Assembly: GCA_049322415.1 (NCBI GenBank)
Contig: JBMORI010000039.1
Coordinates: 8,210 to 72,209, forward strand
Reading direction: 5' to 3'
Length of the DNA stretch: 64,000 nucleotides
DNA from: Thermodesulfobacteriota bacterium
GTDB taxonomy: Bacteria > Desulfobacterota > Desulfovibrionia > Desulfovibrionales > Desulfovibrionaceae
Under the pieces are notes generated by a model. The model saw only the letters and a program-made list of their open reading frames with translations. It had not been told where the DNA came from and did no database searches. Both the position numbers and the translations under genes were made by a program. Numbering within the stretch: position 1 is the first letter of the stretch; every line of letters begins with the position of its first letter. Shown here piece by piece: positions 23,390-39,709 of the stretch.

Positions 23390-23537
23390 GGGGGCGCGCA
23401 ATCCCTTGCAGGGTTGCCCACCACCGCTGGCGCCTGTCCGTGCTTTCGGGGCCCCGGCGGAGGCTTTTCGCGCCACCAGCTCCCGGTGCTCTCGCCCCCC
23501 CATTTTCCATCCGCGCCGATTGTGTTACCCACTCCCC

Positions 23538-24239
23538 ATGCTGACCCGGGAACAAGCCGCCTCCAACCTCCAGCGCGTGCGCGAGCGCATCGCGAACGCC
23601 TGCCTCAAGGCCGGGCGGGACCCCGCCTCGGTCACGCTGGTGGCCGTCTCCAAGACCCATCCTGCCCAGGCCGTGGCCGCCATGGCCGCCGCCGGGCAGG
23701 CGATCTTCGGCGAATCCTACGCGCAGGAGGCCGTCCCGAAACAGGACGAACTGGCGCGCCTCAAGCTGCGCTGGCACTTCATAGGACGCCTCCAGAAGAA
23801 CAAGGCCAAATACGTGGCCGGGCGCTTCGAGCTGATCCACTCCGTTGATTCGCTTGAGTTGGCCCGTATGTTGCATAAAAAATCGGACTTCCTGGGGATT
23901 GTCCAGCCGGTGCTTGTGCAGGTCAACCTTGCCTGCGAGAGCCAGAAGGCCGGTTGCTCCCTGGATGCGGCCATGCCTCTGGCCGAGGCCGCGGCGGAAC
24001 TGTCCGGCCTCGAACTGAGGGGGATCATGCTGATGCCCCCCTGGGACGAGGACCCCGAGGCCAACCGGGGGCTCTTCGCCCGGGCGCGCGAGCTTCGCGG
24101 GCGGCTGTCCGCCCGTCTCGGCCTGCCCATGCCGGAGCTGTCCATGGGCATGTCCCACGACCTGGAGCAGGCCGTGGAGGAGGGGGCCACCCTGGTGCGC
24201 GTGGGCACGGATTTGTTCGGGGCCAGGGAAGCCTTATAA
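23538..24239 (+). CDS. yggS: YggS-family pyridoxal-phosphate homeostasis protein
   Basis: Track ORF trimmed to MLTREQAASNLQRVRERI.... The motif LVAVSKTHP contains the PLP lysine. FGESYAQE, WHFIGRLQKNK and SMGMSHDLEQAVEEGATLVRVGT are also present. Confidence 0.9.
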   Translation: MLTREQAASNLQRVRERIANACLKAGRDPASVTLVAVSKTHPAQAVAAMAAAGQAIFGESYAQEAVPKQDELARLKLRWHFIGRLQKNKAKYVAGRFELIHSVDSLELARMLHKKSDFLGIVQPVLVQVNLACESQKAGCSLDAAMPLAEAAAELSGLELRGIMLMPPWDEDPEANRGLFARARELRGRLSARLGLPMPELSMGMSHDLEQAVEEGATLVRVGTDLFGAREAL

Positions 24240-24257: not shown

Positions 24258-24839
24258 ATGGCCAAGATCGAGGAAGACGCCGGGGAAGGCGCGCCCAAGA
24301 AAAAGAAAAGCAAGCTTCTGCTCATCATCATTCTTCTGGTGATCCTCGGAGCGCTGGGCGGGGGCGGCTATTACGCCTGGATGAAGTTCTTCAAGGCCCC
24401 GCCCCCCGAGACGGCCGAGCAGGCCCCGGCCGAAGGCGAGAAAAAGCCCGAGGAGAAGAAGGACGCCAAAAAGGACGAGAAGAAGGAAGAAAAGAAAGAA
24501 GAGAAAAAGGATGATAAGAAGAAGGACGACAAGAACAAGCCCGTCACGTCCATCAACAACATCGTCACCAACCTGGCCGATGCGGGCGGCAAGCGTTACG
24601 TGCGCCTCTCCGTGGAGTTCGACTTCAAGGACGGCGACGTGGCCGCCGAGTTCGGCGAGAAATACCAGGCCCGCGTCAAGGACGCCATCCTGACGCTCTT
24701 GTGGTCCAAGACCAGCGAGGACCTCTCCAACGTGGACGGCATGCTGGCCTTCCGCACCGAACTGCAGGCGCGGGTCAACCAGATCATGGGCCCTGGCGCG
24801 GTGAAGCAGGTCTTCATAACGGACAGGGTCATCCAGTAG
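24258..24839 (+). CDS. fliL: Flagellar basal-body-associated protein FliL
   Basis: 193 aa. It has a single TM segment, a K/E-rich linker, and the FliL core NLADAGGKRYVRLSVEFDF...LRTELQARVNQIM. Confidence 0.85.
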   Translation: MAKIEEDAGEGAPKKKKSKLLLIIILLVILGALGGGGYYAWMKFFKAPPPETAEQAPAEGEKKPEEKKDAKKDEKKEEKKEEKKDDKKKDDKNKPVTSINNIVTNLADAGGKRYVRLSVEFDFKDGDVAAEFGEKYQARVKDAILTLLWSKTSEDLSNVDGMLAFRTELQARVNQIMGPGAVKQVFITDRVIQ

Positions 24840-24848
24840 GAACGAGCC

Positions 24849-25826
24849 ATGAGCAAGATCCTGAGCCAGGACGAGGTCGATACCCTACTCAGGGGCCTGA
24901 CCGGCGGCGAGATAGAGGCCGAGTCCGAAATCCTGGAGGACGATTCGGGCATAGTGCCCTTCGACCTCTCCAACCAGGACCGCATCATACGCGGCCGCAT
25001 GCCGGTCCTCGAGATCATCAACGACCGCTTCGCGCGCCTGGCCACCAACGCCATGGCCAACGCCATGCGCAAGCGCGTGGACGTGAACCCCATCTCCATC
25101 GACATGTCCAAGTTCGGCGACTTCATGCGGAGCCTGCCGGTGCCCACGTCCATCAACATCTTCAAGCTCGACCCGCTTCGCGGCAACGCCATCCTGGTGG
25201 TGGACTCGCGCCTCGTGTTCGCCCTGGTGGAGAACTTCTTCGGCGGCGCGGGAAGCCAGCCCAAGGTGGAGGGACGCGACTTCACCCCCATCGAGCAGGC
25301 CATCATCGCCAAGGTGGTGCGCTTGGCCCTGGCCAACCTGGAGGACGCCTGGCGGCCCGTGCACGAGGTGCACGTGGAGCTCATCCGCTCCGAGATAAAC
25401 CCGCAGTTCGCGGCCATCGTGCCGCCCTCGGACGTGGTGGTGGTTGTCACGTTCGAGGTGGAGCTGGAGAACGCCATAGGCTCCCTGATCGCCTGCCTGC
25501 CCTACGCCACCATCGAGCCCATCCGCTCCAAGCTGTACGCGTCCTTCCAGTCCGAGCGCCTGGAAGTGGACCACGCCTGGATAAGCCGCTTCAAGGAGCG
25601 CCTCATGGAGACGCCCGTGGAGGTGGTGGTGGAGTTCGGCAAGACCCAGCTCTCGGGCAGACAGCTGCTCTCCCTCAAGGAGGGTGACATCATCCTGCTG
25701 GACACGGACGTGGAGGACCTGCTCAAGGCCGAGGTGCAGGGCGTGAGGAAGTTCTGGGGCGTCCCGGGCAACGTGAAATCCAACAAAGCCTTCCAGGTGC
25801 TCCGGGAAGAGGAAACCCATTTCTAA
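24849..25826 (+). CDS. fliM: Flagellar motor switch protein FliM
   Basis: 325 aa. The N-terminus MSKILSQDEVDTLL is the CheY-P binding LSQxEIDxLL motif, followed by the FliM middle and SpoA domains. Confidence 0.9.
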   Translation: MSKILSQDEVDTLLRGLTGGEIEAESEILEDDSGIVPFDLSNQDRIIRGRMPVLEIINDRFARLATNAMANAMRKRVDVNPISIDMSKFGDFMRSLPVPTSINIFKLDPLRGNAILVVDSRLVFALVENFFGGAGSQPKVEGRDFTPIEQAIIAKVVRLALANLEDAWRPVHEVHVELIRSEINPQFAAIVPPSDVVVVVTFEVELENAIGSLIACLPYATIEPIRSKLYASFQSERLEVDHAWISRFKERLMETPVEVVVEFGKTQLSGRQLLSLKEGDIILLDTDVEDLLKAEVQGVRKFWGVPGNVKSNKAFQVLREEETHF

Positions 25827-25841
25827 GGGGAGGTGGCTTCG

Positions 25842-26387
25842 ATGGCCCCCGACGATGTCGATCAAGATCAATTGGCCGCCGAATGGGCGGCAGCCCTGGA
25901 AGAGGACAAGGGCGGCGGAGGGGTGGACCCCTTCGAGCAGGCCCTGGGAGCGGTGTCCGGCGGCGGCGACGACGCCCTGGCCGAGCAGTGGGCCGCGGCC
26001 CTGGCCGGCGAGGAGGAGACCGCCGTCAAGAAGGAGCGCGAGCAGGCCCAGCTCTCCGCCAAGAGCAGGGAGGCATCGTTCAAGGATTTGACGCAGGAGG
26101 CCAAGGCCCCCCGCGCCGAGACCGGACGCAGGGACCTGGACTTCATCCTGGACATCCCCCTGGACGTCTCCGCCGAGCTCGGGCGCACGAAGCTCCTCAT
26201 CAACGAGCTCCTGCAGCTGGGCCAGGGCTCGGTCATCGAGCTCAACAAGCTGGCCGGCGAGCCGCTCGAGATCTACGTCAACGGCAAGCTGGTGGCGCGC
26301 GGCGAGGCCGTGGTCATCAACGAGAAGTTCGGCGTGCGCCTCACCGACATCATAAGCCCCATCGAACGGGTGAAGCAACTTGGCTGA
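25842..26387 (+). CDS. fliN: Flagellar motor switch protein FliN with an acidic N-terminal extension
   Basis: ATG preceded by GGGGAGG. The C-terminal SpoA domain reads LDIPLDVSAELGRTKLLINELLQLGQGSVIELNKLAGEPLEIYVNGKLVARGEAVVINEKFGVRLTDI. Confidence 0.9.
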   Translation: MAPDDVDQDQLAAEWAAALEEDKGGGGVDPFEQALGAVSGGGDDALAEQWAAALAGEEETAVKKEREQAQLSAKSREASFKDLTQEAKAPRAETGRRDLDFILDIPLDVSAELGRTKLLINELLQLGQGSVIELNKLAGEPLEIYVNGKLVARGEAVVINEKFGVRLTDIISPIERVKQLG

Positions 26388-26766
26388 CGTCACCGGAACC
26401 ATCGTGCCGCCACCGCCGCAGGTTGGCATGGGAGGGGCCGCCATCCAGATGGCGGTGGCCCTGCTGCTGATACTGGCCGTCATTTTGCTGGCGTTCTGGA
26501 TGCTCCGGCGCTTCGGTCCCAAGTTCGGCCTCGGGCCTTCATCCAAGCCGCTCGGGCTGCGCGTGGAGGGCCACCTCACGCTCGGGCCCCGCAAGAACAT
26601 TATGGTGGTCCGCTTCTTGAATAGGCTGTTGGTGCTCGGGGTAACCGACCAGAGCATCAATCTCCTGACAGAGGTGGACGCATCCGATGAAACCAAGGAT
26701 TTCAAGACTGCTCTCGAAGACGCCGCCCGCCGCTCTGACGATCCTGGCGGCCCTGGCTCTCCCTGA
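26380..26766 (+). CDS. fliO: Flagellar biosynthesis protein FliO
   Basis: 128 aa. It has a single TM segment (AIQMAVALLLILAVILLAFWML) and the FliO core LGPRKNIMVVRFLNRLLVLGVTDQSINLL. The start is uncertain: TTG at 26380 or ATG at 26428. Confidence 0.7.
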   Translation: MADVTGTIVPPPPQVGMGGAAIQMAVALLLILAVILLAFWMLRRFGPKFGLGPSSKPLGLRVEGHLTLGPRKNIMVVRFLNRLLVLGVTDQSINLLTEVDASDETKDFKTALEDAARRSDDPGGPGSP

Positions 26767-27457
26767 GCTGGCCCTGGCGGCCGAGCCGACCTTCACGCTC
26801 AATCTGGCGGCCGGGCAGCAGGCGCCCCAGCAGGTGAGCCTGCTCCTGGAGATCCTGTTCATGCTGACGGTGCTGTCGCTTGCGCCGTCCATCATCCTCT
26901 GCTGCACCTCCTTCACCCGCATCATCGTGGTGTTCTCGTTCCTCAGGCAGGCCATGGGCACGGGCCAGATGCCCCCCAACCAGATCCTGGCCAGCCTGGC
27001 CATCTTCATGACCGTGGTCATCATGTTCCCCACGGGCAAGCAGATGTACGAGGAGGCCCTCAACCCCTACCTGGAAGAGCGCATCGGATTCAACGACGCC
27101 CTCAAGAAGGCCGAAGCACCCCTGCGGACGTTCCTGTTCAAGCACACCCGCGAGAAGGACCTCTCCGTGTTCTACACCATCACCAAGATGGACCAGCCCA
27201 AGAACAAGGACGAGGTGCCCACCATCATGCTGGCCGCCGCCTTCATGATAAGCGAGCTCAAGACCGGCTTCACCATCGGCTTTCTGGTCTACATCCCCTT
27301 CCTGGTGCTGGACATGGTGGTGTCGAGCGTCCTTCTGGCCATGGGCATGATGATGCTGCCCCCAGCCATGGTGTCCATGCCCTTCAAGCTTCTGCTGTTC
27401 GTGATGGTGGACGGCTGGAGCCTCATGACGGCGTCACTCGTCAACAGCTTCGTCTAG
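26687..27457 (+). CDS. fliP: Flagellar type III export apparatus protein FliP
   Basis: 256 aa. After a signal-like N-terminus comes SLAPSIILCCTSFTRIIVVFSFLRQAMGTGQMPPNQIL, a FliP hallmark. It overlaps the fliO 3' end. Confidence 0.9.
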   Translation: MKPRISRLLSKTPPAALTILAALALPELALAAEPTFTLNLAAGQQAPQQVSLLLEILFMLTVLSLAPSIILCCTSFTRIIVVFSFLRQAMGTGQMPPNQILASLAIFMTVVIMFPTGKQMYEEALNPYLEERIGFNDALKKAEAPLRTFLFKHTREKDLSVFYTITKMDQPKNKDEVPTIMLAAAFMISELKTGFTIGFLVYIPFLVLDMVVSSVLLAMGMMMLPPAMVSMPFKLLLFVMVDGWSLMTASLVNSFV

Positions 27458-27469
27458 GGAGGCAAGGCC

Positions 27470-27739
27470 ATGACCCCCGATACAGTCGTCGGATTCGCCC
27501 GCTCCGCCATCGAGATCACCCTGCTGCTCTCGCTGCCCATGCTGGCGGTGAGCCTGGTGGTGGGTGTGGTGCTCTCCGTGCTCCAGGCCGCCACGCAGAT
27601 ACAGGAGATGACTCTCACCTTCGTGCCCAAGATCATCGCCATGTTCGTGGCAATCATCGTGGCCTTCCCGTGGCTCATGGACAAGATGATCGTGTTCACG
27701 CGCGAGCTTATGCTCAACATACCAAAGTACATCCAATAG
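27470..27739 (+). CDS. fliQ: Flagellar type III export apparatus protein FliQ
   Basis: 89 aa, containing LVVGVVLSVLQAATQIQEMTLTFVPKIIA. Confidence 0.9.
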   Translation: MTPDTVVGFARSAIEITLLLSLPMLAVSLVVGVVLSVLQAATQIQEMTLTFVPKIIAMFVAIIVAFPWLMDKMIVFTRELMLNIPKYIQ

Positions 27740-30482: not shown

Positions 30483-32291
30483 TCAGAACCCTCCGCCGCC
30501 GTCCAGCGAACCCGATGAAGGGACGCTGGCCATGGACAGGGCGATCCGCCCGGTCACGGGCATGGCCCCCAGTTCGGAGAAGGTGGTGGCCTGGCGCAGG
30601 ACGATCTCGTCCTTGGCCGCAACGCTGAAAGCCTGGCCCGGACTGACCGGCGCGTTGCCCGCGAAGAACTGCACCATGTCCGCCGGGCCGTTGCCGGTCA
30701 CGTCCTTGAGCACGTAGCGCCCCGGGGCGATATGGAGATGCTCCCCGGGGCTCCAGGCCAGCGTCAGGTCGCGGCCGTCCCCGGCGGTCAGGACGATTGA
30801 GCGCACCTCCCTCGGCCGGACCCGGATGGTGAAACGGCTTTCCTGCTCCCTGGGGGTCTCGCGGACCACTTCGTAAAGGAAGTCCCCGTTTTCCAGAGTG
30901 GTGACGAATTTTGGAATGAAGCTTTTTGGGTCCAGGATGATTTCCTGGCCCGCGTCCTGCCCGTCGTTTTTGCCCACGCGGCTCACGTAGCCCTTGAGGT
31001 TGAGCACCTCGTCCTTCCTGCTGCCCCAGACGCCTTCCAGCACGAGCCTGTCGCCCTGCACGGCCTGTATCTCGCCGCCTGCCGGAACGACCTTGAGCTC
31101 CCCTCCGAGCCAGCACACGAAGCGGGGCGGCCCGGCGGGCTCGCTGGCGGGCCAGGCGCCGGTCCATTCCAGGGTGGCGGTGGCAAGGACGACGCCGTCG
31201 GCGCGCACGTCCAGGGCGGTGAAGGGCGAGAGGGGCAGGCGCGGAGCCTTGGCGAGGTTGAAGCCGGGCCTGTCCGAGGCGAACACCGCCGGGACCGGGG
31301 ACAGCGTGTTCTTGCTGTCGCGCACCTCGCAACGCACGTCCAGGGGCGTCCCCGGATTGAGCCGGATGCGTGGCTTGCCAGCGGGAAGCTCGCGGCCGTT
31401 GACGGTCACCTTGAGGCTGCGTCCGGGATAGGCCTTCATGTCGCCGGCCGTCAGGCGCGGCGCTTCCAGCTCCACGCCGAACTGGCGCAGGAAGAGCACC
31501 GTGGCCCCAAGCTGGTTGGCCACCTTCCAGGACAGGTCGGGGATGTTCTTGCTCACCTCGATGGCCAGCGCGGGGATGCCCACGCTGGAGAGGGCGTAGA
31601 ACGTGAGGGACTTGCGCTGCTCCAGGTATTTGGAGCGGTCGTTGAAGGTGTCCATGTTGAAGAGCTGGAAATGGTGGTCCTTGGGCGTGACGCTTTCGTT
31701 GATCTTGGCCAGCGTCTGCCGCGCGGTGCGCTCCAGCGTGGCCGCTCCCTTGTGGGTGCTGGCGTCGATGATGACGGACTGCCCGTACCGGTGAGGGCCG
31801 CGCAGGTCGCTCTTGCGCACGGGGTCGTAGAAGCCGGAGCCCTCGTGCAGGTGGATGAGCGCCTGGCTCTGGGACACCAGGAACCGGATGAGCCGGGCAA
31901 GCCTGTCCTCGTAGAATTCGTTGTAGTCCTTGTCGAAGCGGCGGTTGAGGTCCACGTTGATTGCGCGCCTGCGCTCATGGATGGAAGGCGGGTTGGCCCG
32001 GGGGACGATTATCACCGTGCCGCGCGTCACCTTGGCCCGCGTCAGCGCCTGGGCGGTGAGGAATCCGCCGGTCTCGTCCCCCTGGATGCCGCCCTGCACC
32101 ATGATGGTGGGGCCGGGCTTCTCCCCCTTTAGGAAATGGACGTCGATGGCGTACTGCGTGCCGGGGAAAAAGGTATGGACCTCGGCGGACGCTGGGACGG
32201 CGAGGAGCAGGGCGAGAAGGCAGGGCAGGATGCTACTGCTGAGCCTTTTCAAGCGGATATGTTTCGCTGAAGATGGTCTTGCCGGAAGCAT
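30483..32291 (-). CDS. Secreted M14-type (AstE/Csd4-Pgp1-like) metallocarboxypeptidase with a long C-terminal beta-rich extension
   Basis: 602 aa. After a signal peptide comes GPTIMVQGGIQGDETGG (QxxE in place of HxxE), then VIIVPRANPPS, NVDLNRRF and ALIHLHEGSG. The exact start is uncertain; a TTG 13 codons downstream of the ATG is possible. Confidence 0.7.
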   Translation of the reverse strand: MLPARPSSAKHIRLKRLSSSILPCLLALLLAVPASAEVHTFFPGTQYAIDVHFLKGEKPGPTIMVQGGIQGDETGGFLTAQALTRAKVTRGTVIIVPRANPPSIHERRRAINVDLNRRFDKDYNEFYEDRLARLIRFLVSQSQALIHLHEGSGFYDPVRKSDLRGPHRYGQSVIIDASTHKGAATLERTARQTLAKINESVTPKDHHFQLFNMDTFNDRSKYLEQRKSLTFYALSSVGIPALAIEVSKNIPDLSWKVANQLGATVLFLRQFGVELEAPRLTAGDMKAYPGRSLKVTVNGRELPAGKPRIRLNPGTPLDVRCEVRDSKNTLSPVPAVFASDRPGFNLAKAPRLPLSPFTALDVRADGVVLATATLEWTGAWPASEPAGPPRFVCWLGGELKVVPAGGEIQAVQGDRLVLEGVWGSRKDEVLNLKGYVSRVGKNDGQDAGQEIILDPKSFIPKFVTTLENGDFLYEVVRETPREQESRFTIRVRPREVRSIVLTAGDGRDLTLAWSPGEHLHIAPGRYVLKDVTGNGPADMVQFFAGNAPVSPGQAFSVAAKDEIVLRQATTFSELGAMPVTGRIALSMASVPSSGSLDGGGGF

Positions 32292-33012
32292 TGTTGAGCA
32301 CCAGTCTCAAACCGAAGAGGTTGCCCGGGTCGAGCCCTTTGGGGAGTGGAGCCTGCGCCTGCACCTGCTTGAACCGCTGGATGGTGAACCCCAGGTCGTC
32401 CTTGCCGGTCTGGACGGGGGTCATGGCGCCATCCTTGGTGATTGCGAAAAGCTGGCCGTTGCCGGACAAGGCCTGGGGTTGCAGGTTCGAGAGGTCGAAA
32501 GAGTAATGCATGCCCTTGGCGTCGAACTTGGCTCGGAAATTCTCTACCGCGGCCTGGCCCTGATCCACCTTGGCCATGATCTCGGAAAGGTCGATGGCGG
32601 CGGGTTTGTCGCGGTCTGAAGAGGCGTTCTTGTCCTTGGAGTCTTTTTCCTTGGATTCCTTGGGTTTGGTCTGGGGCTGCTTGGCGGGTTGCAGGTCCAG
32701 ACCCAGCCCGGCCAGGAGTTGGGTGAGCTCGGTGGGGTCCGAGGTCTGGAGGAGCTTCTCGATGTTCTGGAGCCTTTCGAGCTTGATGAGGGCTTCGGAG
32801 AGGCGCTTCTCCACCTCGCGCCTTTCGGCGTGGGCGTCCTGGCCGCGCTTCCAGAACTGCCAGGCGGCGAAAACCCCGCCTGCCGCGCCGAGAACGGCGA
32901 GCACCAGGAAATAGGAAACCGCTCGTATCCACCCGGGGCGCAGCCGCAGGCGCTTGGCCGGCTGCTCGTCCTGGAACCAGATGACGTTCAGCTTTCCCTG
33001 GTTGCCCGCCAT
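32233..33012 (-). CDS. Single-pass membrane protein with a coiled coil and a K/D/S-rich linker, function unknown
   Basis: 259 aa. The TM segment is AVSYFLVLAVLGAAGGVFAAW and the heptad-like stretch is ERREVEKRLSEALIKLERLQNIEKLL. Its ATG directly abuts the upstream stop. Confidence 0.65.
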   Translation of the reverse strand: MAGNQGKLNVIWFQDEQPAKRLRLRPGWIRAVSYFLVLAVLGAAGGVFAAWQFWKRGQDAHAERREVEKRLSEALIKLERLQNIEKLLQTSDPTELTQLLAGLGLDLQPAKQPQTKPKESKEKDSKDKNASSDRDKPAAIDLSEIMAKVDQGQAAVENFRAKFDAKGMHYSFDLSNLQPQALSGNGQLFAITKDGAMTPVQTGKDDLGFTIQRFKQVQAQAPLPKGLDPGNLFGLRLVLNNASGKTIFSETYPLEKAQQ

Positions 33013-34311
33013 TTACATCCTGCTCCAGTCTTCGTCCAGGATGCTCCAGCCGTTGCCGGTCGGGCCGAGGACGAGCTTCTTCCGGCCCTTGTCGGAGAGG
33101 CCGTCCTTGCTGGCGTACTCCTGCACGAATTCCACGAGAACGCCATCCTGGGTCAGGGAGAACTTCATGTCGCGCACCGCGACCTTCTTCGGGCCCTTCT
33201 TGCCGGCCCAGAGCTGCTTCTTCTGCTCCTCGATGGAGCTTCTGCCCCTGCGGTCGCCCTGGACCGCGTTGTCGCCGTAGAACTGGATGTAGTCGGCCAG
33301 CTTGCCCTTCTCCCAGGCCTGCCTCCATGCCTCGATGGTCTTGGTCACATCCGGCCTGACGCGGTCGAGGTATTTCGCTTCGAGCCCGAGGTTGGATTCC
33401 TCGAACTCCATGCCCACTATGACGAAGCGCCCCTCGGCGTTCTTCTGCCAGTAGAGGCGCTTGACGCCTTCGCTGGTGAGAGTGGGCGAGCGGTAGAGCT
33501 GGCCGAAGTACGTTACCCAGTAGTCCGGGCCCTGCACGGCCCGGACGTCCTCCAGCAGGACGTGGATCCAGGGCAGCCTGGAGAACAGCTGGCGCTTGTG
33601 GCCGCGGAAGTTCTCGAAGGGTTCGGCGCTTGAGATGGCGAACTTCTGGGCGTCGTGGAAGGCGAAGAAGTCCTCGGACTTGCGCGACCAGGCCTTGGCC
33701 CACTCCAGGGTCGCCGCCACCACCTCCTGGCCCTCCTTGGAGGCCTGGGGGGCGTCCTTGGACCAGTGCACCTCGTTGGCGATCACCACCGGCAGGACGC
33801 GCTTGGTGAACTGGGGATCGAGTTCCTTGATGTCGGGGTTGTTGAGGGCCACGCAACCCCGGCTCTCCATGGGCGTGATGGGCCTGCCCCGGCCGTGGAT
33901 CCAGATGCCCGAGCCCTTGCGCCCGTTAATGACGTCGATGGGGTTGGGGTAGTTGAGGGTGAAGGCCAGGTCGCCGTAGAGGTCGAAGTCCAGGCCCCCG
34001 TTGATGCGATTCTTGATGAAATAGACGCCTTCGGGGGTTTTGAGGTCGCCCTCGCGCCACTTCGTGCCCGGCTCCTGTCCCGTGGTGCAGGGCAGCTGCT
34101 TGATGGGCTGGAGCGGGCTCTTCTGCTCGAAGAACCAGAAAGTCTGCGAGGACTTGTCCACCGCCAGAAAGCGCTGCGGGCCGTACGGGTCGGCCCTGAG
34201 GCTGGCGGCCCAGCCCACGTCGCCCGCGTGAGCGGGGCCGAAGCAGGACAGCAAAACGGCGGCGGCGATGGCGAATGCGAGCAGGGACTGTTTTGCGAGT
34301 GGCGCGTCCAC
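33013..34311 (-). CDS. L,D-transpeptidase-fold (YkuD) protein with two NTF2/SnoaL-like C-terminal segments (Csd6/Pgp2-like architecture)
   Basis: 432 aa with a GTG start. After a signal peptide comes the YkuD catalytic region GIWIHGRGRPITPMESRGCVAL. The C-terminus carries the repeats VAATLEWAKAWSRKSEDFFAFHD... and KTIEAWRQAWEKGKLADYIQFYGD.... Confidence 0.75.
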   Translation of the reverse strand: MDAPLAKQSLLAFAIAAAVLLSCFGPAHAGDVGWAASLRADPYGPQRFLAVDKSSQTFWFFEQKSPLQPIKQLPCTTGQEPGTKWREGDLKTPEGVYFIKNRINGGLDFDLYGDLAFTLNYPNPIDVINGRKGSGIWIHGRGRPITPMESRGCVALNNPDIKELDPQFTKRVLPVVIANEVHWSKDAPQASKEGQEVVAATLEWAKAWSRKSEDFFAFHDAQKFAISSAEPFENFRGHKRQLFSRLPWIHVLLEDVRAVQGPDYWVTYFGQLYRSPTLTSEGVKRLYWQKNAEGRFVIVGMEFEESNLGLEAKYLDRVRPDVTKTIEAWRQAWEKGKLADYIQFYGDNAVQGDRRGRSSIEEQKKQLWAGKKGPKKVAVRDMKFSLTQDGVLVEFVQEYASKDGLSDKGRKKLVLGPTGNGWSILDEDWSRM

Positions 34312-34350
34312 GGTCTGGCTCCTCCGTGAGTCGACGGTGGTCTTGAAAGT

Positions 34351-36241: not shown

Positions 36242-36271
36242 AAAACAAGCAAGGCAGCCGAAGCTGCCTTG
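36242..36271 (-). terminator. Intrinsic terminator after the FmdB-family gene
   Basis: On the minus strand the sequence reads caaggcagc-ttcg-gctgccttg, followed by cttgtttt. Confidence 0.6.
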
Positions 36272-36283
36272 CCGGGGTATCGC

Positions 36284-36845: not shown

Positions 36846-36931
36846 GGGTGTTTCCTCCTGGCGATGTACGCTCGAAAAAAAGGTTCCTTACTGATTCACC
36901 CCTGGCCTGTCCAGGTGTTTTTTTTAAGCAA

Positions 36932-39709
36932 ATGAGCTATCAACCTTTCATGAGCAATTCCCGTGCCCGGATCGTCCTGCTCCTGGCCGTGGTGGCCTTC
37001 GCCGCCGCGTCGAGGCTGGCGTGGCTCGAATCCACGCCTTTGTGGTGGGACGAGTTCGTCACCCTTGGCCGGGCCAAGTTGCATCCGGGCGCGCTCTGGA
37101 CCAGCCTGTCGTACCAGGGGCCGTCGGACTCCTCGCTGGACTCCTCCCCGCCGCTTCTGCACTTCATCCTGCACGGCGTGCTGGCCCTGGGGGGAGCGTC
37201 GGAGACATGGGTGAAGCTGCCGAGCGCCGTCTTCGGCGCGCTCACGGTCCTTGTCATGTATCCGCTTGGGACGCGCCTCTTCGGGGGGCGTTCCGGGCTC
37301 TACGCCTCGGCCCTGCTCGGCTTCTCGCTCTACCACATGCACTACAGCCGCGAGGCCAGGCCCTATGCGCTTTACCTGCTCCTGGCCGCCTGCTCCCTCT
37401 GGCTTCTGCTGCGCGCGCTGGACCTGAACAGGTTCCGTGACTGGGCCGCCTGCGCCCTGGCCTCGGCGGCCACGCTCTACGCCTCCTACCTGGGCGGGGC
37501 CAGCCTTGCCGCCCTGGGCGGCTACCTTGCCGCGCTCGCGCTATCGGGGCGCATGCCTCCGGGGCGGACCCTCCCCGCATTCGCGAGCGTGGCCTTCGCG
37601 GCCCTGGCCTACCTGCCGTGGCTGCCCGGGCACCTCTTCCATATGGAGCTCATCTATTCCCCCGGCGGCGACATGGGCCTGACCCCCGCCTTCCTGGGCC
37701 GGGCGTTCATGGAGTTCACTTCCGGCAGCGGGCTCTACCTGGCCTGCGCCGCCTTCGGGGCCGCCGTGGGCATGCACCGCCATCCCGCGAAGGCCGCGCT
37801 GCTCTACATCTGGCTGGCCCTGCCCGTCGCGGCGGCGCTGGTCCTGCGCACGGGCATCGCGGTCAATCCCCGCTACCTCGTCAACTTCGTGCCGGGTCTG
37901 GCCCTGCTGGCCGGGGCCGGGCTGGACGGACTGGTCAGGGGGGTGTCGCTGGCCCTGCCGGGCCGGGCAGCCGCTCTTCTTGGACTCGTCGCGGCGGTGG
38001 GCCTCTCCTGGCCGGGCCTGACGCGGATGCCGGACTACTACCGCCGCGACAGCCATTCGGTGCGGGACGACCTGCTGGAAGTGGCCGTGAACGCGGCCAA
38101 CGCGGACACCCTGGCCTTTCCCCGCAACCGGCACCTGAAGGTCTTCGCCCGCTGGTACCTGCCGGGGCTTTTCGGCGATCTCTCCCAAAGCGGCGATCTG
38201 GGCTACCGCCGCGTCATGCTGCTAAGCGGCCCCGAGTTCACCCCGGACCTGCCGGGCGAGGCCGAAGCCCACGGCGATCTGCGGGCCTTCCGGATAGGGC
38301 TCCTGAACGTGAGCCCCCTCCCGGCCCCGGGCCCCTACAAGGCGGATTTCTCGAACCTCAGCCTCTACCGCGAGGCCGCCTTCTGGGACAACATCGGCCC
38401 CGACCTGTTCAGGAAATCCCTCACCCTCTACGACCCCGAGCGCCCGGGCCGCGTGCTGTGGCGGTTCACCGCCCCCGAGGGCGGCTTCCCCGCCCAGGTG
38501 ACGCTGCGATGCCGCCTGCGGCTGGACAAAAGCCGGGCCACGCCGCCTCCGGACGCTTCGCTGGCCGTCCTGGCCGGGGCGTCGCCCGAATCCCTCAAGG
38601 CAGCCGCCGCCGTGACGCACGCCGATTTCAAGGCCGGACAGGAGCTGGACCTGACCTTGGCGGTCCCGGCCACCGGCCCGGAACTCACGGCCGGCATCCA
38701 CATGGACCCCGGAACCATCCACGGCGGCATCGAGGTGGTCTCCTTCGATCTGGACTTTCCCGAACGTCCGGCGATCCCCGTCCCGGCGGCGGAGCGCCTG
38801 AGGGGCAGGGCGAAGCTCGTCCCCTGGGCGCCCGGAGTGGTCCGGACCGGGGACGGCGCGCTCTTCGGCTTCGCCCCGGACGATCCGCGCCTGTCAGCCT
38901 TCCTGGCCGAGCATCCCGGCATCGAACCCGTGGCCTCCCTGCCGGACCTCGTCCTCTACGACCCGGCCCTGCTCCGGCCCCGGATCGACCTGCCCGGCCC
39001 GGCGGTGCTCTACGCGGGCAGGTCCCTCCAGGGCATTCGCGTCACCGGGCCGTTTTCGGGCCAGACGCTCGCTCTGGGCGGCTTCGCCCTCCCGCTCCCC
39101 CTAAACGCCCCGCCGGGCTCGGCTCTGGAAATCGCGCCCGGCGGTCAGGGACGCATCAGGGCCGGACTGGATTTCTCGTCCGGATCGACCGGCGCTTTCC
39201 TGTCCTTCAACACCGAGCTCCCGGAGGGTTCTCCCAGCGTCACCTGCCGGGGCGAGAACGGCTGTTTCCTGGTCTACGCCCTGCGCTCGCCCGCGCCCGT
39301 GCGGACCGTGCGGGTGGCGTGGACCCCCGAAGCCTACGGCGAGCCGGGACAGGAGAACGGCGTGCGCCTGTCCTACTCCACGGACGGCAGCTCCTACCGG
39401 CCCGTGGACGCCATGAGCGTCAGGAACTCCGAGCTGTGGGAGGGGAAATACCGCTGTATAACCCGCATCGAGCTGAATGCCCCGTCCACGCTGGTCTACC
39501 TGCGCTTCGACCTGACCAGCGACAAGGCCCGCCTCTGGGCCGGACCCGCAACCCCGCTCTGCATCGACGCATGGACCGATCCGCCCGCGAAGCTCCCGGC
39601 CGCGCTGCCGGAAACACCGTTCAAGCCCGTCAACTCCGGGCCGCCGGTGCAGGTCTACCTGTCGCCCGCGCCCCTGCCGGACCTGGACGGGCTGCTGGCC
39701 CCCCACTAG
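36932..39709 (+). CDS. GT39/ArnT-PMT-like membrane glycosyltransferase fused to a periplasmic C-terminal region of about 500 aa
   Basis: Track ORF trimmed to MSYQPFMSNSRARIVLLLAVV.... The first periplasmic loop contains WWDEF (a DE-type motif). About 11 hydrophobic spans reach to about residue 400, followed by a long soluble region. Confidence 0.7.
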   Translation: MSYQPFMSNSRARIVLLLAVVAFAAASRLAWLESTPLWWDEFVTLGRAKLHPGALWTSLSYQGPSDSSLDSSPPLLHFILHGVLALGGASETWVKLPSAVFGALTVLVMYPLGTRLFGGRSGLYASALLGFSLYHMHYSREARPYALYLLLAACSLWLLLRALDLNRFRDWAACALASAATLYASYLGGASLAALGGYLAALALSGRMPPGRTLPAFASVAFAALAYLPWLPGHLFHMELIYSPGGDMGLTPAFLGRAFMEFTSGSGLYLACAAFGAAVGMHRHPAKAALLYIWLALPVAAALVLRTGIAVNPRYLVNFVPGLALLAGAGLDGLVRGVSLALPGRAAALLGLVAAVGLSWPGLTRMPDYYRRDSHSVRDDLLEVAVNAANADTLAFPRNRHLKVFARWYLPGLFGDLSQSGDLGYRRVMLLSGPEFTPDLPGEAEAHGDLRAFRIGLLNVSPLPAPGPYKADFSNLSLYREAAFWDNIGPDLFRKSLTLYDPERPGRVLWRFTAPEGGFPAQVTLRCRLRLDKSRATPPPDASLAVLAGASPESLKAAAAVTHADFKAGQELDLTLAVPATGPELTAGIHMDPGTIHGGIEVVSFDLDFPERPAIPVPAAERLRGRAKLVPWAPGVVRTGDGALFGFAPDDPRLSAFLAEHPGIEPVASLPDLVLYDPALLRPRIDLPGPAVLYAGRSLQGIRVTGPFSGQTLALGGFALPLPLNAPPGSALEIAPGGQGRIRAGLDFSSGSTGAFLSFNTELPEGSPSVTCRGENGCFLVYALRSPAPVRTVRVAWTPEAYGEPGQENGVRLSYSTDGSSYRPVDAMSVRNSELWEGKYRCITRIELNAPSTLVYLRFDLTSDKARLWAGPATPLCIDAWTDPPAKLPAALPETPFKPVNSGPPVQVYLSPAPLPDLDGLLAPH

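Follow-up and report, generated by a model that had tools for sequence, protein, structure and literature searches.

Does a three-gene cluster of the Desulfovibrionales encode a peptidoglycan-trimming module that makes these bacteria vibrioid? The question was raised by a 64,000-nucleotide stretch of a Desulfovibrionaceae genome (Thermodesulfobacteriota bacterium, GenBank assembly GCA_049322415.1, contig JBMORI010000039.1, positions 8,210 to 72,209 of the forward strand), the whole of which is called the window below. Three minus-strand genes of the window, named A, B and C in their order of reading, encode a secreted YkuD protein, a single-pass membrane protein and a secreted M99 carboxypeptidase, respectively. 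We propose, at a probability of about 0.7, that A-B-C is a translationally coupled operon for the stepwise trimming of stem peptides in the periplasm, that B serves as a membrane adaptor, and that the outcome is the vibrioid shape. The searchable literature contained no studies of how vibrioid sulfate reducers become curved.

A preliminary description of the window, made from its letters, had reported that the three genes abut or overlap, and the open reading frames (ORFs) bore this out (Table 1). The TAA stop of A abuts the ATG of B with no gap. The overlap of B with C is 59 nt for a C start at ATG 32291 and 20 nt for a start at TTG 32252; the latter is the start in a 100%-identical NCBI protein model (P0051, 589 aa), and the start of C is ambiguous. 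Codon composition was of the coding type in all three genes (GC3 0.83-0.92 and low GC2, in 66% GC sequence).

The two secreted enzymes

Gene C had been labelled M14/AstE-like, a description that was right about a secreted carboxypeptidase and wrong about AstE. Pfam placed its catalytic domain in Peptidase_M99 (93.2 bits against a cutoff of 27, E-value 2.4e-26), a family annotated as 'carboxypeptidase controlling helical cell shape', while AstE_AspA_cat reached 46.4 bits (E 4e-12). Searched as a single sequence against the PDB, C matched Csd4 of Helicobacter pylori with E 6e-22 (residues 59-273), compared with 1e-5 for the best AstE-type structure; with the C family profile these values were 1.3e-33 for Csd4 and 4e-7 for AstE-type structures. 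The fold agreed: in Foldseek the AlphaFold model of C matched Csd4 with E 1e-21 over 455-488 columns, and the next fold class, again AstE-type, followed at 2e-7. NCBIfam equivalogs for AstE, aspartoacylase and DoeB gave 15-21 bits against cutoffs of 170-403. Database names for C homologs are mixed: NCBI uses 'M14/M99 family metallopeptidase', and some records read 'succinylglutamate desuccinylase' or 'DABA deacetylase'.

The active site of C is intact. In Csd4 the metal is held by Gln46, Glu49 and His128, Glu222 is the general base, and Arg86, Asn93, Arg94, His126 and Arg147 contact the substrate, the Arg and Asn residues binding meso-diaminopimelate (meso-DAP), its carboxylate and the scissile carbonyl (Kim 2014). 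The preliminary description had pointed to a GGIQGDE motif in C and asked whether its Gln occupies the zinc-ligand position of Csd4. Reading the codons placed Gln70 and Glu73 exactly where it had put them, and GGIQGDE aligned column for column with AGIQGDE of Csd4, Gln70 falling on Gln46 (the Gln46His form of Csd4 is available as PDB entry 4wcm). The further equivalences in the alignment were Glu73 with Glu49, His149 with His128, Glu245 with the general base Glu222, and Arg109, Asn116, Arg117, His147 and Arg168 with the five substrate contacts in the order given above. All nine residues were invariant in 83/83 homologs. Because of the M99 and Csd4 scores, the intact site and the signal peptide, C is most likely a secreted M99 DL-carboxypeptidase of the Csd4/Pgp1 type and not a cytosolic AstE-like deacylase; its specificity is taken from homology.

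Beyond the catalytic domain, the C-terminal 327 aa of C matched no Pfam family and gave no sequence hit to the corresponding part of Csd4. Residues 276-583 were modelled as an all-beta region that is conserved within the C family and exceeds domains 2 and 3 of Csd4 by about 130 aa. An earlier survey listed Pgp1 homologs in eleven vibrioid Desulfovibrio strains in two tiers of similarity: D. salexigens and D. aespoeensis at 1e-20 to 1e-23, and Hildenborough, G20, RS-1 and others at 1e-91 to 1e-99 (Frirdich 2012, Table S1). The first two are now classified in Maridesulfovibrio and Pseudodesulfovibrio, genera that carry the long form of C. Since the weak-scoring tier coincides with long-form genera, long-form C would represent a divergent subfamily of M99, set apart from the classical Pgp1-like proteins that other Desulfovibrionaceae possess.

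Gene A had been described as a secreted YkuD protein followed by two NTF2-like segments, and this description held. Pfam recognised the YkuD domain, and each of the two segments, scanned separately, exceeded the gathering cutoff of Cds6_C (27 bits; scores in Table 1). The protein has a single hydrophobic segment, at its N-terminus (Kyte-Doolittle maximum 2.06 at residue 9). A lipoprotein anchored through the 'LLSC' stretch was considered and set aside, as Cys23 is not among the conserved positions. The best PDB matches were Bd1075 (7o21, E 8e-32), Csd6 (4xzz, 8e-26) and Pgp2 (6xj6, 2e-22), and the next YkuD protein followed only at 1e-4. His139 and Cys153 of A align with His141 and Cys156 of Bd1075 and were invariant in 81/81 homologs.

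Both NTF2-like domains were likewise kept in 81/81 homologs of A. The first aligns with the NTF2 domain of Bd1075, and its Tyr273 is the equivalent of the pocket residue Tyr274 (Tyr in 76/81 homologs, Phe in 5/81). Residues 227-281 of Csd6 aligned to residues 324-379 of A, within the second domain. The pocket of the NTF2 domain in Pgp2 is a binding site for peptidoglycan, and helical cell shape depends on it. The two copies in A are barely similar to each other (E 0.067), which argues for an old duplication. Taken by homology, A is most likely a secreted LD-carboxypeptidase of the Csd6/Pgp2/Bd1075 type. Of the three sequence-level results that the preliminary description had named as refuting its reading (a Gln off the zinc-ligand position, a better score of C as AstE/aspartoacylase, C-terminal segments of A that are not NTF2-like), none occurred.

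Protein B and the conserved gene order

B is predicted to be an N-in, single-pass inner-membrane protein, and it belongs to a small uncharacterised family. When 1.84 billion representative proteins were searched exhaustively with a profile, 308 representatives of 220-368 aa were recovered, and the architecture was retained down to 20-25% identity. The AlphaFold model (predicted local distance difference test, pLDDT, 72.7) has one helix spanning residues 26-90, preceded by the hairpin of the tail and followed by the K/D/S/P-rich linker (QPAKQPQTKPKESKEKDSKDKNASSDRDKP) and an all-beta domain. The tail carries a net positive charge (6 Lys/Arg against 2 Asp/Glu). Among 94 family members it was the most conserved region (2.57 bits per position), and the linker was the least conserved (0.70 bits per position, length 10-125 residues). 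Leu78, Arg80, Leu81 and Asn83 in the helix were at least 91% conserved in the family, and in the C-terminal domain the motif F.I.RFK and Gly184 were conserved. Of the features first ascribed to B, the single membrane pass and the linker were recovered; the heptad coiled coil was not established, the heptad signal being weak (8/14 a/d positions hydrophobic in the best register).

No match to B was found in Pfam, NCBIfam or the PDB with the single sequence, or in the PDB with the family profile, and its model retrieved in Foldseek generic Ig-like sandwiches only, none below E 1e-3. B thus remained, as first described, an uncharacterised membrane protein between two enzyme genes. Neither its N-terminal nor its C-terminal module was found in other proteins below E 0.2 in about 1.4 Mb of ORFs from the window and the loci described below. 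Several candidate relatives were rejected. A match to the PomB linker reached only E 0.14. The RodZ model of NCBIfam (PRK10856) scored 14.3 bits against a cutoff of 208 and covered the transmembrane and linker region only. For a Csd5-like protein, the SH3 domain was not found in Pfam or Foldseek and the model showed an Ig-like beta-sandwich. Finally, the beta-domain of B did not appear to be a copy of a C-terminal beta-domain of C (hhalign probability 1.9%).

To follow the gene order, genomes were scanned with the C-family alignment, which gave 80 loci, all from Desulfovibrionales, with C proteins 40-75% identical to that of the window. A, B and C lay in this order on one strand in 72/80 loci, usually within the block Zn-ribbon, purB, pyrE, A, B, C, TIM-barrel. 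Recurrence of the order at such identities argues against chance clustering, and the conserved synteny supports a functional module. The junctions are also conserved: the distance from the stop of A to the start of B was -4, -1 or 0 nt in 68/76 loci, and B and C overlapped in about 64/72, a count that rests on estimated start codons. C was syntenic with A in 77/80 loci.

In five of the loci (L062, L069, L075, L078 and L080), mostly from metagenome-assembled genomes (MAGs) labelled Desulfohalobiaceae or Desulfovibrionales, A abuts C directly. The Zn-ribbon, purB, pyrE, A, C, TIM-barrel block is otherwise intact there, which indicates that B is truly absent. No membrane anchor of its own was found in A of these lineages, where A has its usual length and an ordinary signal peptide. 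In the remaining three loci C stands alone in an unrelated context, which marks these copies as paralogs.

These lone genes are second long-form M99 genes outside the purB-pyrE block (L006 4943-6835, L007 7686-9794 and L008 7671-9845). L007 and L037 share a single Humidesulfovibrio contig, and a single Desulfocurvus MAG is the source of both L008 and L067. By neighbour joining, the operon-linked C clade of the window was sister to the lone paralogs and not to the operon-linked copies of those genera, a topology that suggests duplication with replacement, or transfer. The loci L002 and L003 (and the proteins P0020 and P0064) come from MAGs labelled 'Acidobacteriota bacterium'. They hold the complete module in unchanged synteny, with C 71-72% identical to that of the window and, in P0020, a B homolog 65% identical; these bins are probably mislabelled Fundidesulfovibrio-like genomes.

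Divergent B homologs were looked up in other assemblies. An A-type gene stood directly upstream in 7/7 and C downstream in 3/7. The other four, on contigs of 52-55% GC, represent a subtype with a longer A (516-570 aa where complete, the extra length being a low-complexity linker between domains), a long-linker B (295-337 aa) lying 5 nt from A, and no M99 gene downstream. Together with the 72 loci above, B was directly downstream of an A homolog in 79/79 contexts. As B never occurred without A in this sample, A-B appears to be the conserved core pair.

Proposed stepwise trimming and its alternatives

The proposed mechanism starts with A, which would remove D-Ala4 and so convert tetrapeptides to tripeptides, its NTF2-like domains binding peptidoglycan and directing the site of action. 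C, as a zinc DL-carboxypeptidase, would then remove meso-DAP3 from the uncross-linked tripeptides made by A, leaving dipeptides that could no longer be cross-linked. That the two enzymes act as consecutive steps (tetra- to tri- to dipeptide) is suggested by Campylobacter, where Pgp2 provides the substrate of Pgp1 (Frirdich 2014, PMC3961634). B, made in step with A, would regulate A, and perhaps C, or set their position with respect to the growing wall, using its conserved cytoplasmic tail and its periplasmic beta-domain on a flexible tether. The conserved tail points to a cytoplasmic partner, and the variable tether to a domain that reaches out towards the wall. Local loss of cross-linkable stems would finally bias wall mechanics and yield the vibrioid shape.

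A role of the module in cell curvature is plausible. Morphology tables describe Fundidesulfovibrio, Humidesulfovibrio and Pseudodesulfovibrio, all carriers of the module, as vibrios. The distribution is compatible with a curvature role and is no proof of one.

Several points weigh against the proposal. YkuD domains can also have LD-transpeptidase or amidase activity, and the sequence of A does not by itself fix which activity it has. Neither Foldseek nor the family profile detected homology of B to any known adaptor. The five syntenic loci without B and the four A-B loci without C show that neither gene is indispensable at the locus. For the carrier genera Desulfobaculum, Desulfocurvus, Maridesulfovibrio and Salidesulfovibrio the described shape is variable, rod or vibrio, and so the presence of the module does not discriminate shape at genus level.

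Another account can be given of the same genes. A and C might trim stems for general maturation or turnover of the wall, for example limiting cross-link donors and acceptors or releasing meso-DAP, without determining curvature, and B would be a housekeeping anchor. The cluster does sit inside an order-wide block of housekeeping genes and is found in genera with rod-shaped members, and Pgp2 homologs are not confined to curved bacteria (Frirdich 2014, PMC3961634). However, all characterised proteins with an M99 domain or with YkuD plus a Cds6_C NTF2 domain (Csd4, Pgp1, Csd6, Pgp2 and Bd1075) are shape determinants, and the conservation of Pgp1 lies mainly among epsilon- and delta-proteobacteria of helical or vibrioid shape (Frirdich 2012). 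We therefore consider general wall trimming an unlikely explanation of the module. Were it correct, the result would be an ordinary one, two new members of known enzyme families.

It is improbable that B is functionally unlinked to A and C and merely co-transcribed with them. Its position immediately after an A homolog in every context examined, even without C, the overlapping or abutting A-B junctions in 68/76 loci, and a small family seen in the A context only all speak for a link, against the absence of B from five otherwise identical loci and the failure to find a recognisable peptidoglycan-binding or enzyme-binding domain in it.

We see still less chance that A is an LD-transpeptidase forming 3-3 cross-links, or a DpaA/YafK-like amidase freeing lipoproteins from peptidoglycan, with C acting on other substrates. 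The YkuD fold is common to all these activities, and NCBIfam gave a weak LdtF_DpaA_YafK match (E 3.6e-6), but with the DpaA model the score was 26 bits, where the cutoff is 365. LD-carboxypeptidases take the first three places among the PDB matches (E 1e-22 to 1e-32, with 1e-4 for the YkuD protein that follows), the carboxypeptidase group has the Cds6_C NTF2 domain as its accessory domain, and Csd6 has been reported as non-functional as a transpeptidase. A cytosolic AstE/aspartoacylase/DoeB-type deacylase lying beside A by coincidence is effectively refuted for C, since the AstE_AspA_cat match that passes its own cutoff scores half as high as M99, profile, fold and equivalogs disfavour it, the names borne by some database records notwithstanding, and C has Gln rather than His as first metal ligand, a signal peptide and synteny with A.

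The proposed trimming operon is a compact candidate: three genes, order-wide in distribution, in which a membrane protein is translationally coupled to both enzyme types of the Helicobacter and Campylobacter trimming pathway. It makes directly testable how vibrioid shape arises in Desulfovibrionales and possibly also how Bd1075-type enzymes are targeted, and lineages whose locus is missing B or C are natural 'knock-outs' for comparative morphology. A bolder extension concerns B. In Bdellovibrio, Bd1075 (PDB 7O21) is the LD-carboxypeptidase that makes the cell vibrioid, and it is directed to the convex face by its NTF2 domain; the authors of that study stated that the mechanism for targeting a protein to one lateral wall is not known. 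B might be the founder of a class of inner-membrane adaptors that pass a cytoplasmic cue, received by the N-terminal hairpin, to a Bd1075-like enzyme and so limit trimming to one side of the cell. We hold this extension to be doubtful; if true, it would supply the asymmetric-targeting mechanism missing for Bd1075 and explain the vibrioid shape in Desulfovibrionales.

The locus and its relation to known systems

The coordinates of the module and of its parts are collected in Table 1. A promoter scan found no sigma-70-like site upstream of A, and no terminator-like site was found after C; from purB to the end of C the scan likewise gave neither promoter-like nor terminator-like sites. A strong terminator-like hairpin, with an 11-bp stem that includes 7 G-C pairs and with a T-rich tail, lies at 36248-36273 on the minus strand, between the Zn-ribbon gene and purB. 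The overlap of purB with pyrE is 4 nt, and 39 nt separate pyrE from A. The hairpin upstream of purB and the lack of such sites downstream of it suggest that the transcription unit may extend over purB-pyrE-A-B-C.

Table 1. Features of the A-B-C module, numbered by position in the window, and of the A-B loci of the 52-55% GC subtype, numbered within each locus
Feature	Position	Strand	Basis and details
GGAGGA ribosome-binding site of A	34320-34325	minus	read from sequence; 8 nt upstream of GTG
Gene A	33013-34311	minus	ORF, 432 aa, GTG start at 34311
Signal peptide of A, ~residues 1-29	34225-34311	minus	hydrophobic segment; putative cleavage between AHA and G, judged from sequence
YkuD catalytic domain of A, residues 47-170	33802-34173	minus	Pfam PF03734, E 3.7e-16; GIWIHG His139, SRGCVAL Cys153
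First Cds6_C NTF2-like domain of A, residues 198-298	33418-33720	minus	Pfam PF24125, 43.6 bits
Second Cds6_C NTF2-like domain of A, residues 322-427	33031-33348	minus	Pfam PF24125, 54.5 bits
Gene B	32233-33012	minus	ORF, 259 aa, ATG start
N-terminal tail of B, residues 1-28, predicted cytoplasmic	32929-33012	minus	AlphaFold beta-hairpin, strands 8-14 and 17-24
Transmembrane helix of B, ~residues 29-53	32854-32928	minus	Kyte-Doolittle 19-residue maximum 2.08 at residue 32
Periplasmic helix of B, residues 54-102, LERLQNIEKLL	32707-32853	minus	AlphaFold model
Disordered K/D/S/P-rich linker of B, residues 103-140	32593-32706	minus	pLDDT <50 for residues 104-139
Periplasmic all-beta C-terminal domain of B, residues 141-259 (~115 residues)	32236-32592	minus	pLDDT 80-90
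Gene C	30483-32291	minus	ORF, 602 aa from ATG 32291, or 589 aa from TTG 32252
Signal peptide of C, residues 1-36	32184-32291	minus	single N-terminal hydrophobic segment; putative cleavage between ASA and E
M99 catalytic domain of C, residues 60-275	31467-32114	minus	Pfam PF17033
Gln70-Gly-Asp-Glu73 metal-binding motif of C	32073-32084	minus	codons CAG GGG GAC GAG read; aligned to Csd4
All-beta C-terminal region of C, residues 276-583	30543-31466	minus	AlphaFold model, predicted template modelling score (pTM) 0.79, strands only
A-B locus L083	4445-6888		52-55% GC
A-B locus L084	4307-6900		52-55% GC
A-B locus L086	79-2810		52-55% GC
A-B locus L087	2-2379		52-55% GC

No second copy of A, B or C was found in the 64-kb window, and no other shape genes (bactofilin, M23 peptidase) were found within 10 kb of the module. 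The neighbours within that distance are flagellar genes and genes for a YggS-like protein, a methyltransferase and a PMT_2-like protein. The flagellar cluster (fliL, fliM, fliN, then fliP and fliQ) occupies 24258-27739 on the plus strand, about 3 kb from the module, and directly upstream of it lies a gene for a YggS-type pyridoxal phosphate protein (23406-24239). The gene at 36848-39709 (plus strand) encodes a 953-aa membrane protein with a PMT_2 (dolichyl-phosphate-mannose mannosyltransferase-like) domain at the N-terminus only; GC around this gene is about 0.72, compared with 0.66 for the window. The window belongs to a Fundidesulfovibrio-like member of the Desulfovibrionaceae; among homologs from named organisms, those of Fundidesulfovibrio species come closest to B and C.

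The preliminary description had also held that the two enzyme genes do not form one operon in the epsilonproteobacterial models and that no such module had been described for vibrioid sulfate reducers, which in part overstated the novelty. Pgp1 homologs of vibrioid Desulfovibrio were tabulated in 2012, as mentioned above, and pgp2 was itself discovered because it co-occurs with pgp1 and lies no more than 300 bp from it in Nitratiruptor, Nautilia, Desulfococcus oleovorans and Persephonella, all of them non-model taxa (Frirdich 2014, PMC3961634). Adjacency of the two enzyme genes is consequently not new. What stood is that the literature searched contained no functional study of A-, B- or C-type genes in sulfate reducers, and no paper that links Desulfovibrio with Csd4, Pgp1, Pgp2, Csd6 or M99 in its main text.

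Compared with Csd4 and with Pgp1 of Campylobacter jejuni, C is alike in being secreted and in its M14-like catalytic domain with the atypical Gln-x-x-Glu...His site, the general-base Glu and the substrate-binding Arg/Asn/Arg. It differs in that its sequence similarity to Csd4 is confined to the catalytic domain. Csd4 has three domains (carboxypeptidase, beta-barrel and Ig-like), a layout that C may share: the structural alignment runs over 455-488 columns, although the longer C-terminal all-beta region of C matched neither the last two domains in sequence nor any Pfam family. The gene of C also differs from those of Csd4 and Pgp1 in sharing an operon with an LD-carboxypeptidase gene.

A resembles Bd1075 of Bdellovibrio bacteriovorus, Csd6 of H. 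pylori and Pgp2 of C. jejuni in having a YkuD domain with His and Cys followed by a Cds6_C NTF2-like domain, and it shares the pocket Tyr with Bd1075. Unlike these three proteins, which have one NTF2-like domain each, A has two in tandem, and its gene is translationally coupled to that of a membrane protein. A counterpart of the N-terminal domain of Csd6 was not found in A, for which no specific search was made.

The adaptor-like layout of B recalls two membrane proteins of other shape systems. Csd5 of H. pylori, described as a potential regulator of the Csd network, carries a C-terminal SH3 domain that binds peptidoglycan. B is like Csd5 and E. coli RodZ in layout only: a single transmembrane helix follows a short stretch in the cytoplasm and leads, in the periplasm, to a helix or linker and then to a small C-terminal domain. 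It differs from them in that no homology was found, in lacking a detected SH3 domain and a helix-turn-helix, and in its tail, a 28-residue hairpin.

At the level of the locus, DL- and LD-carboxypeptidase genes lie close together both here and in the pgp1-pgp2 taxa listed in 2014, and in most Desulfovibrionales B sits between them. The enzymes A and C are new members of known families; what is new is protein B, the tandem arrangement of NTF2 domains in A, the divergent long form of M99 and an operon that extends across the order.

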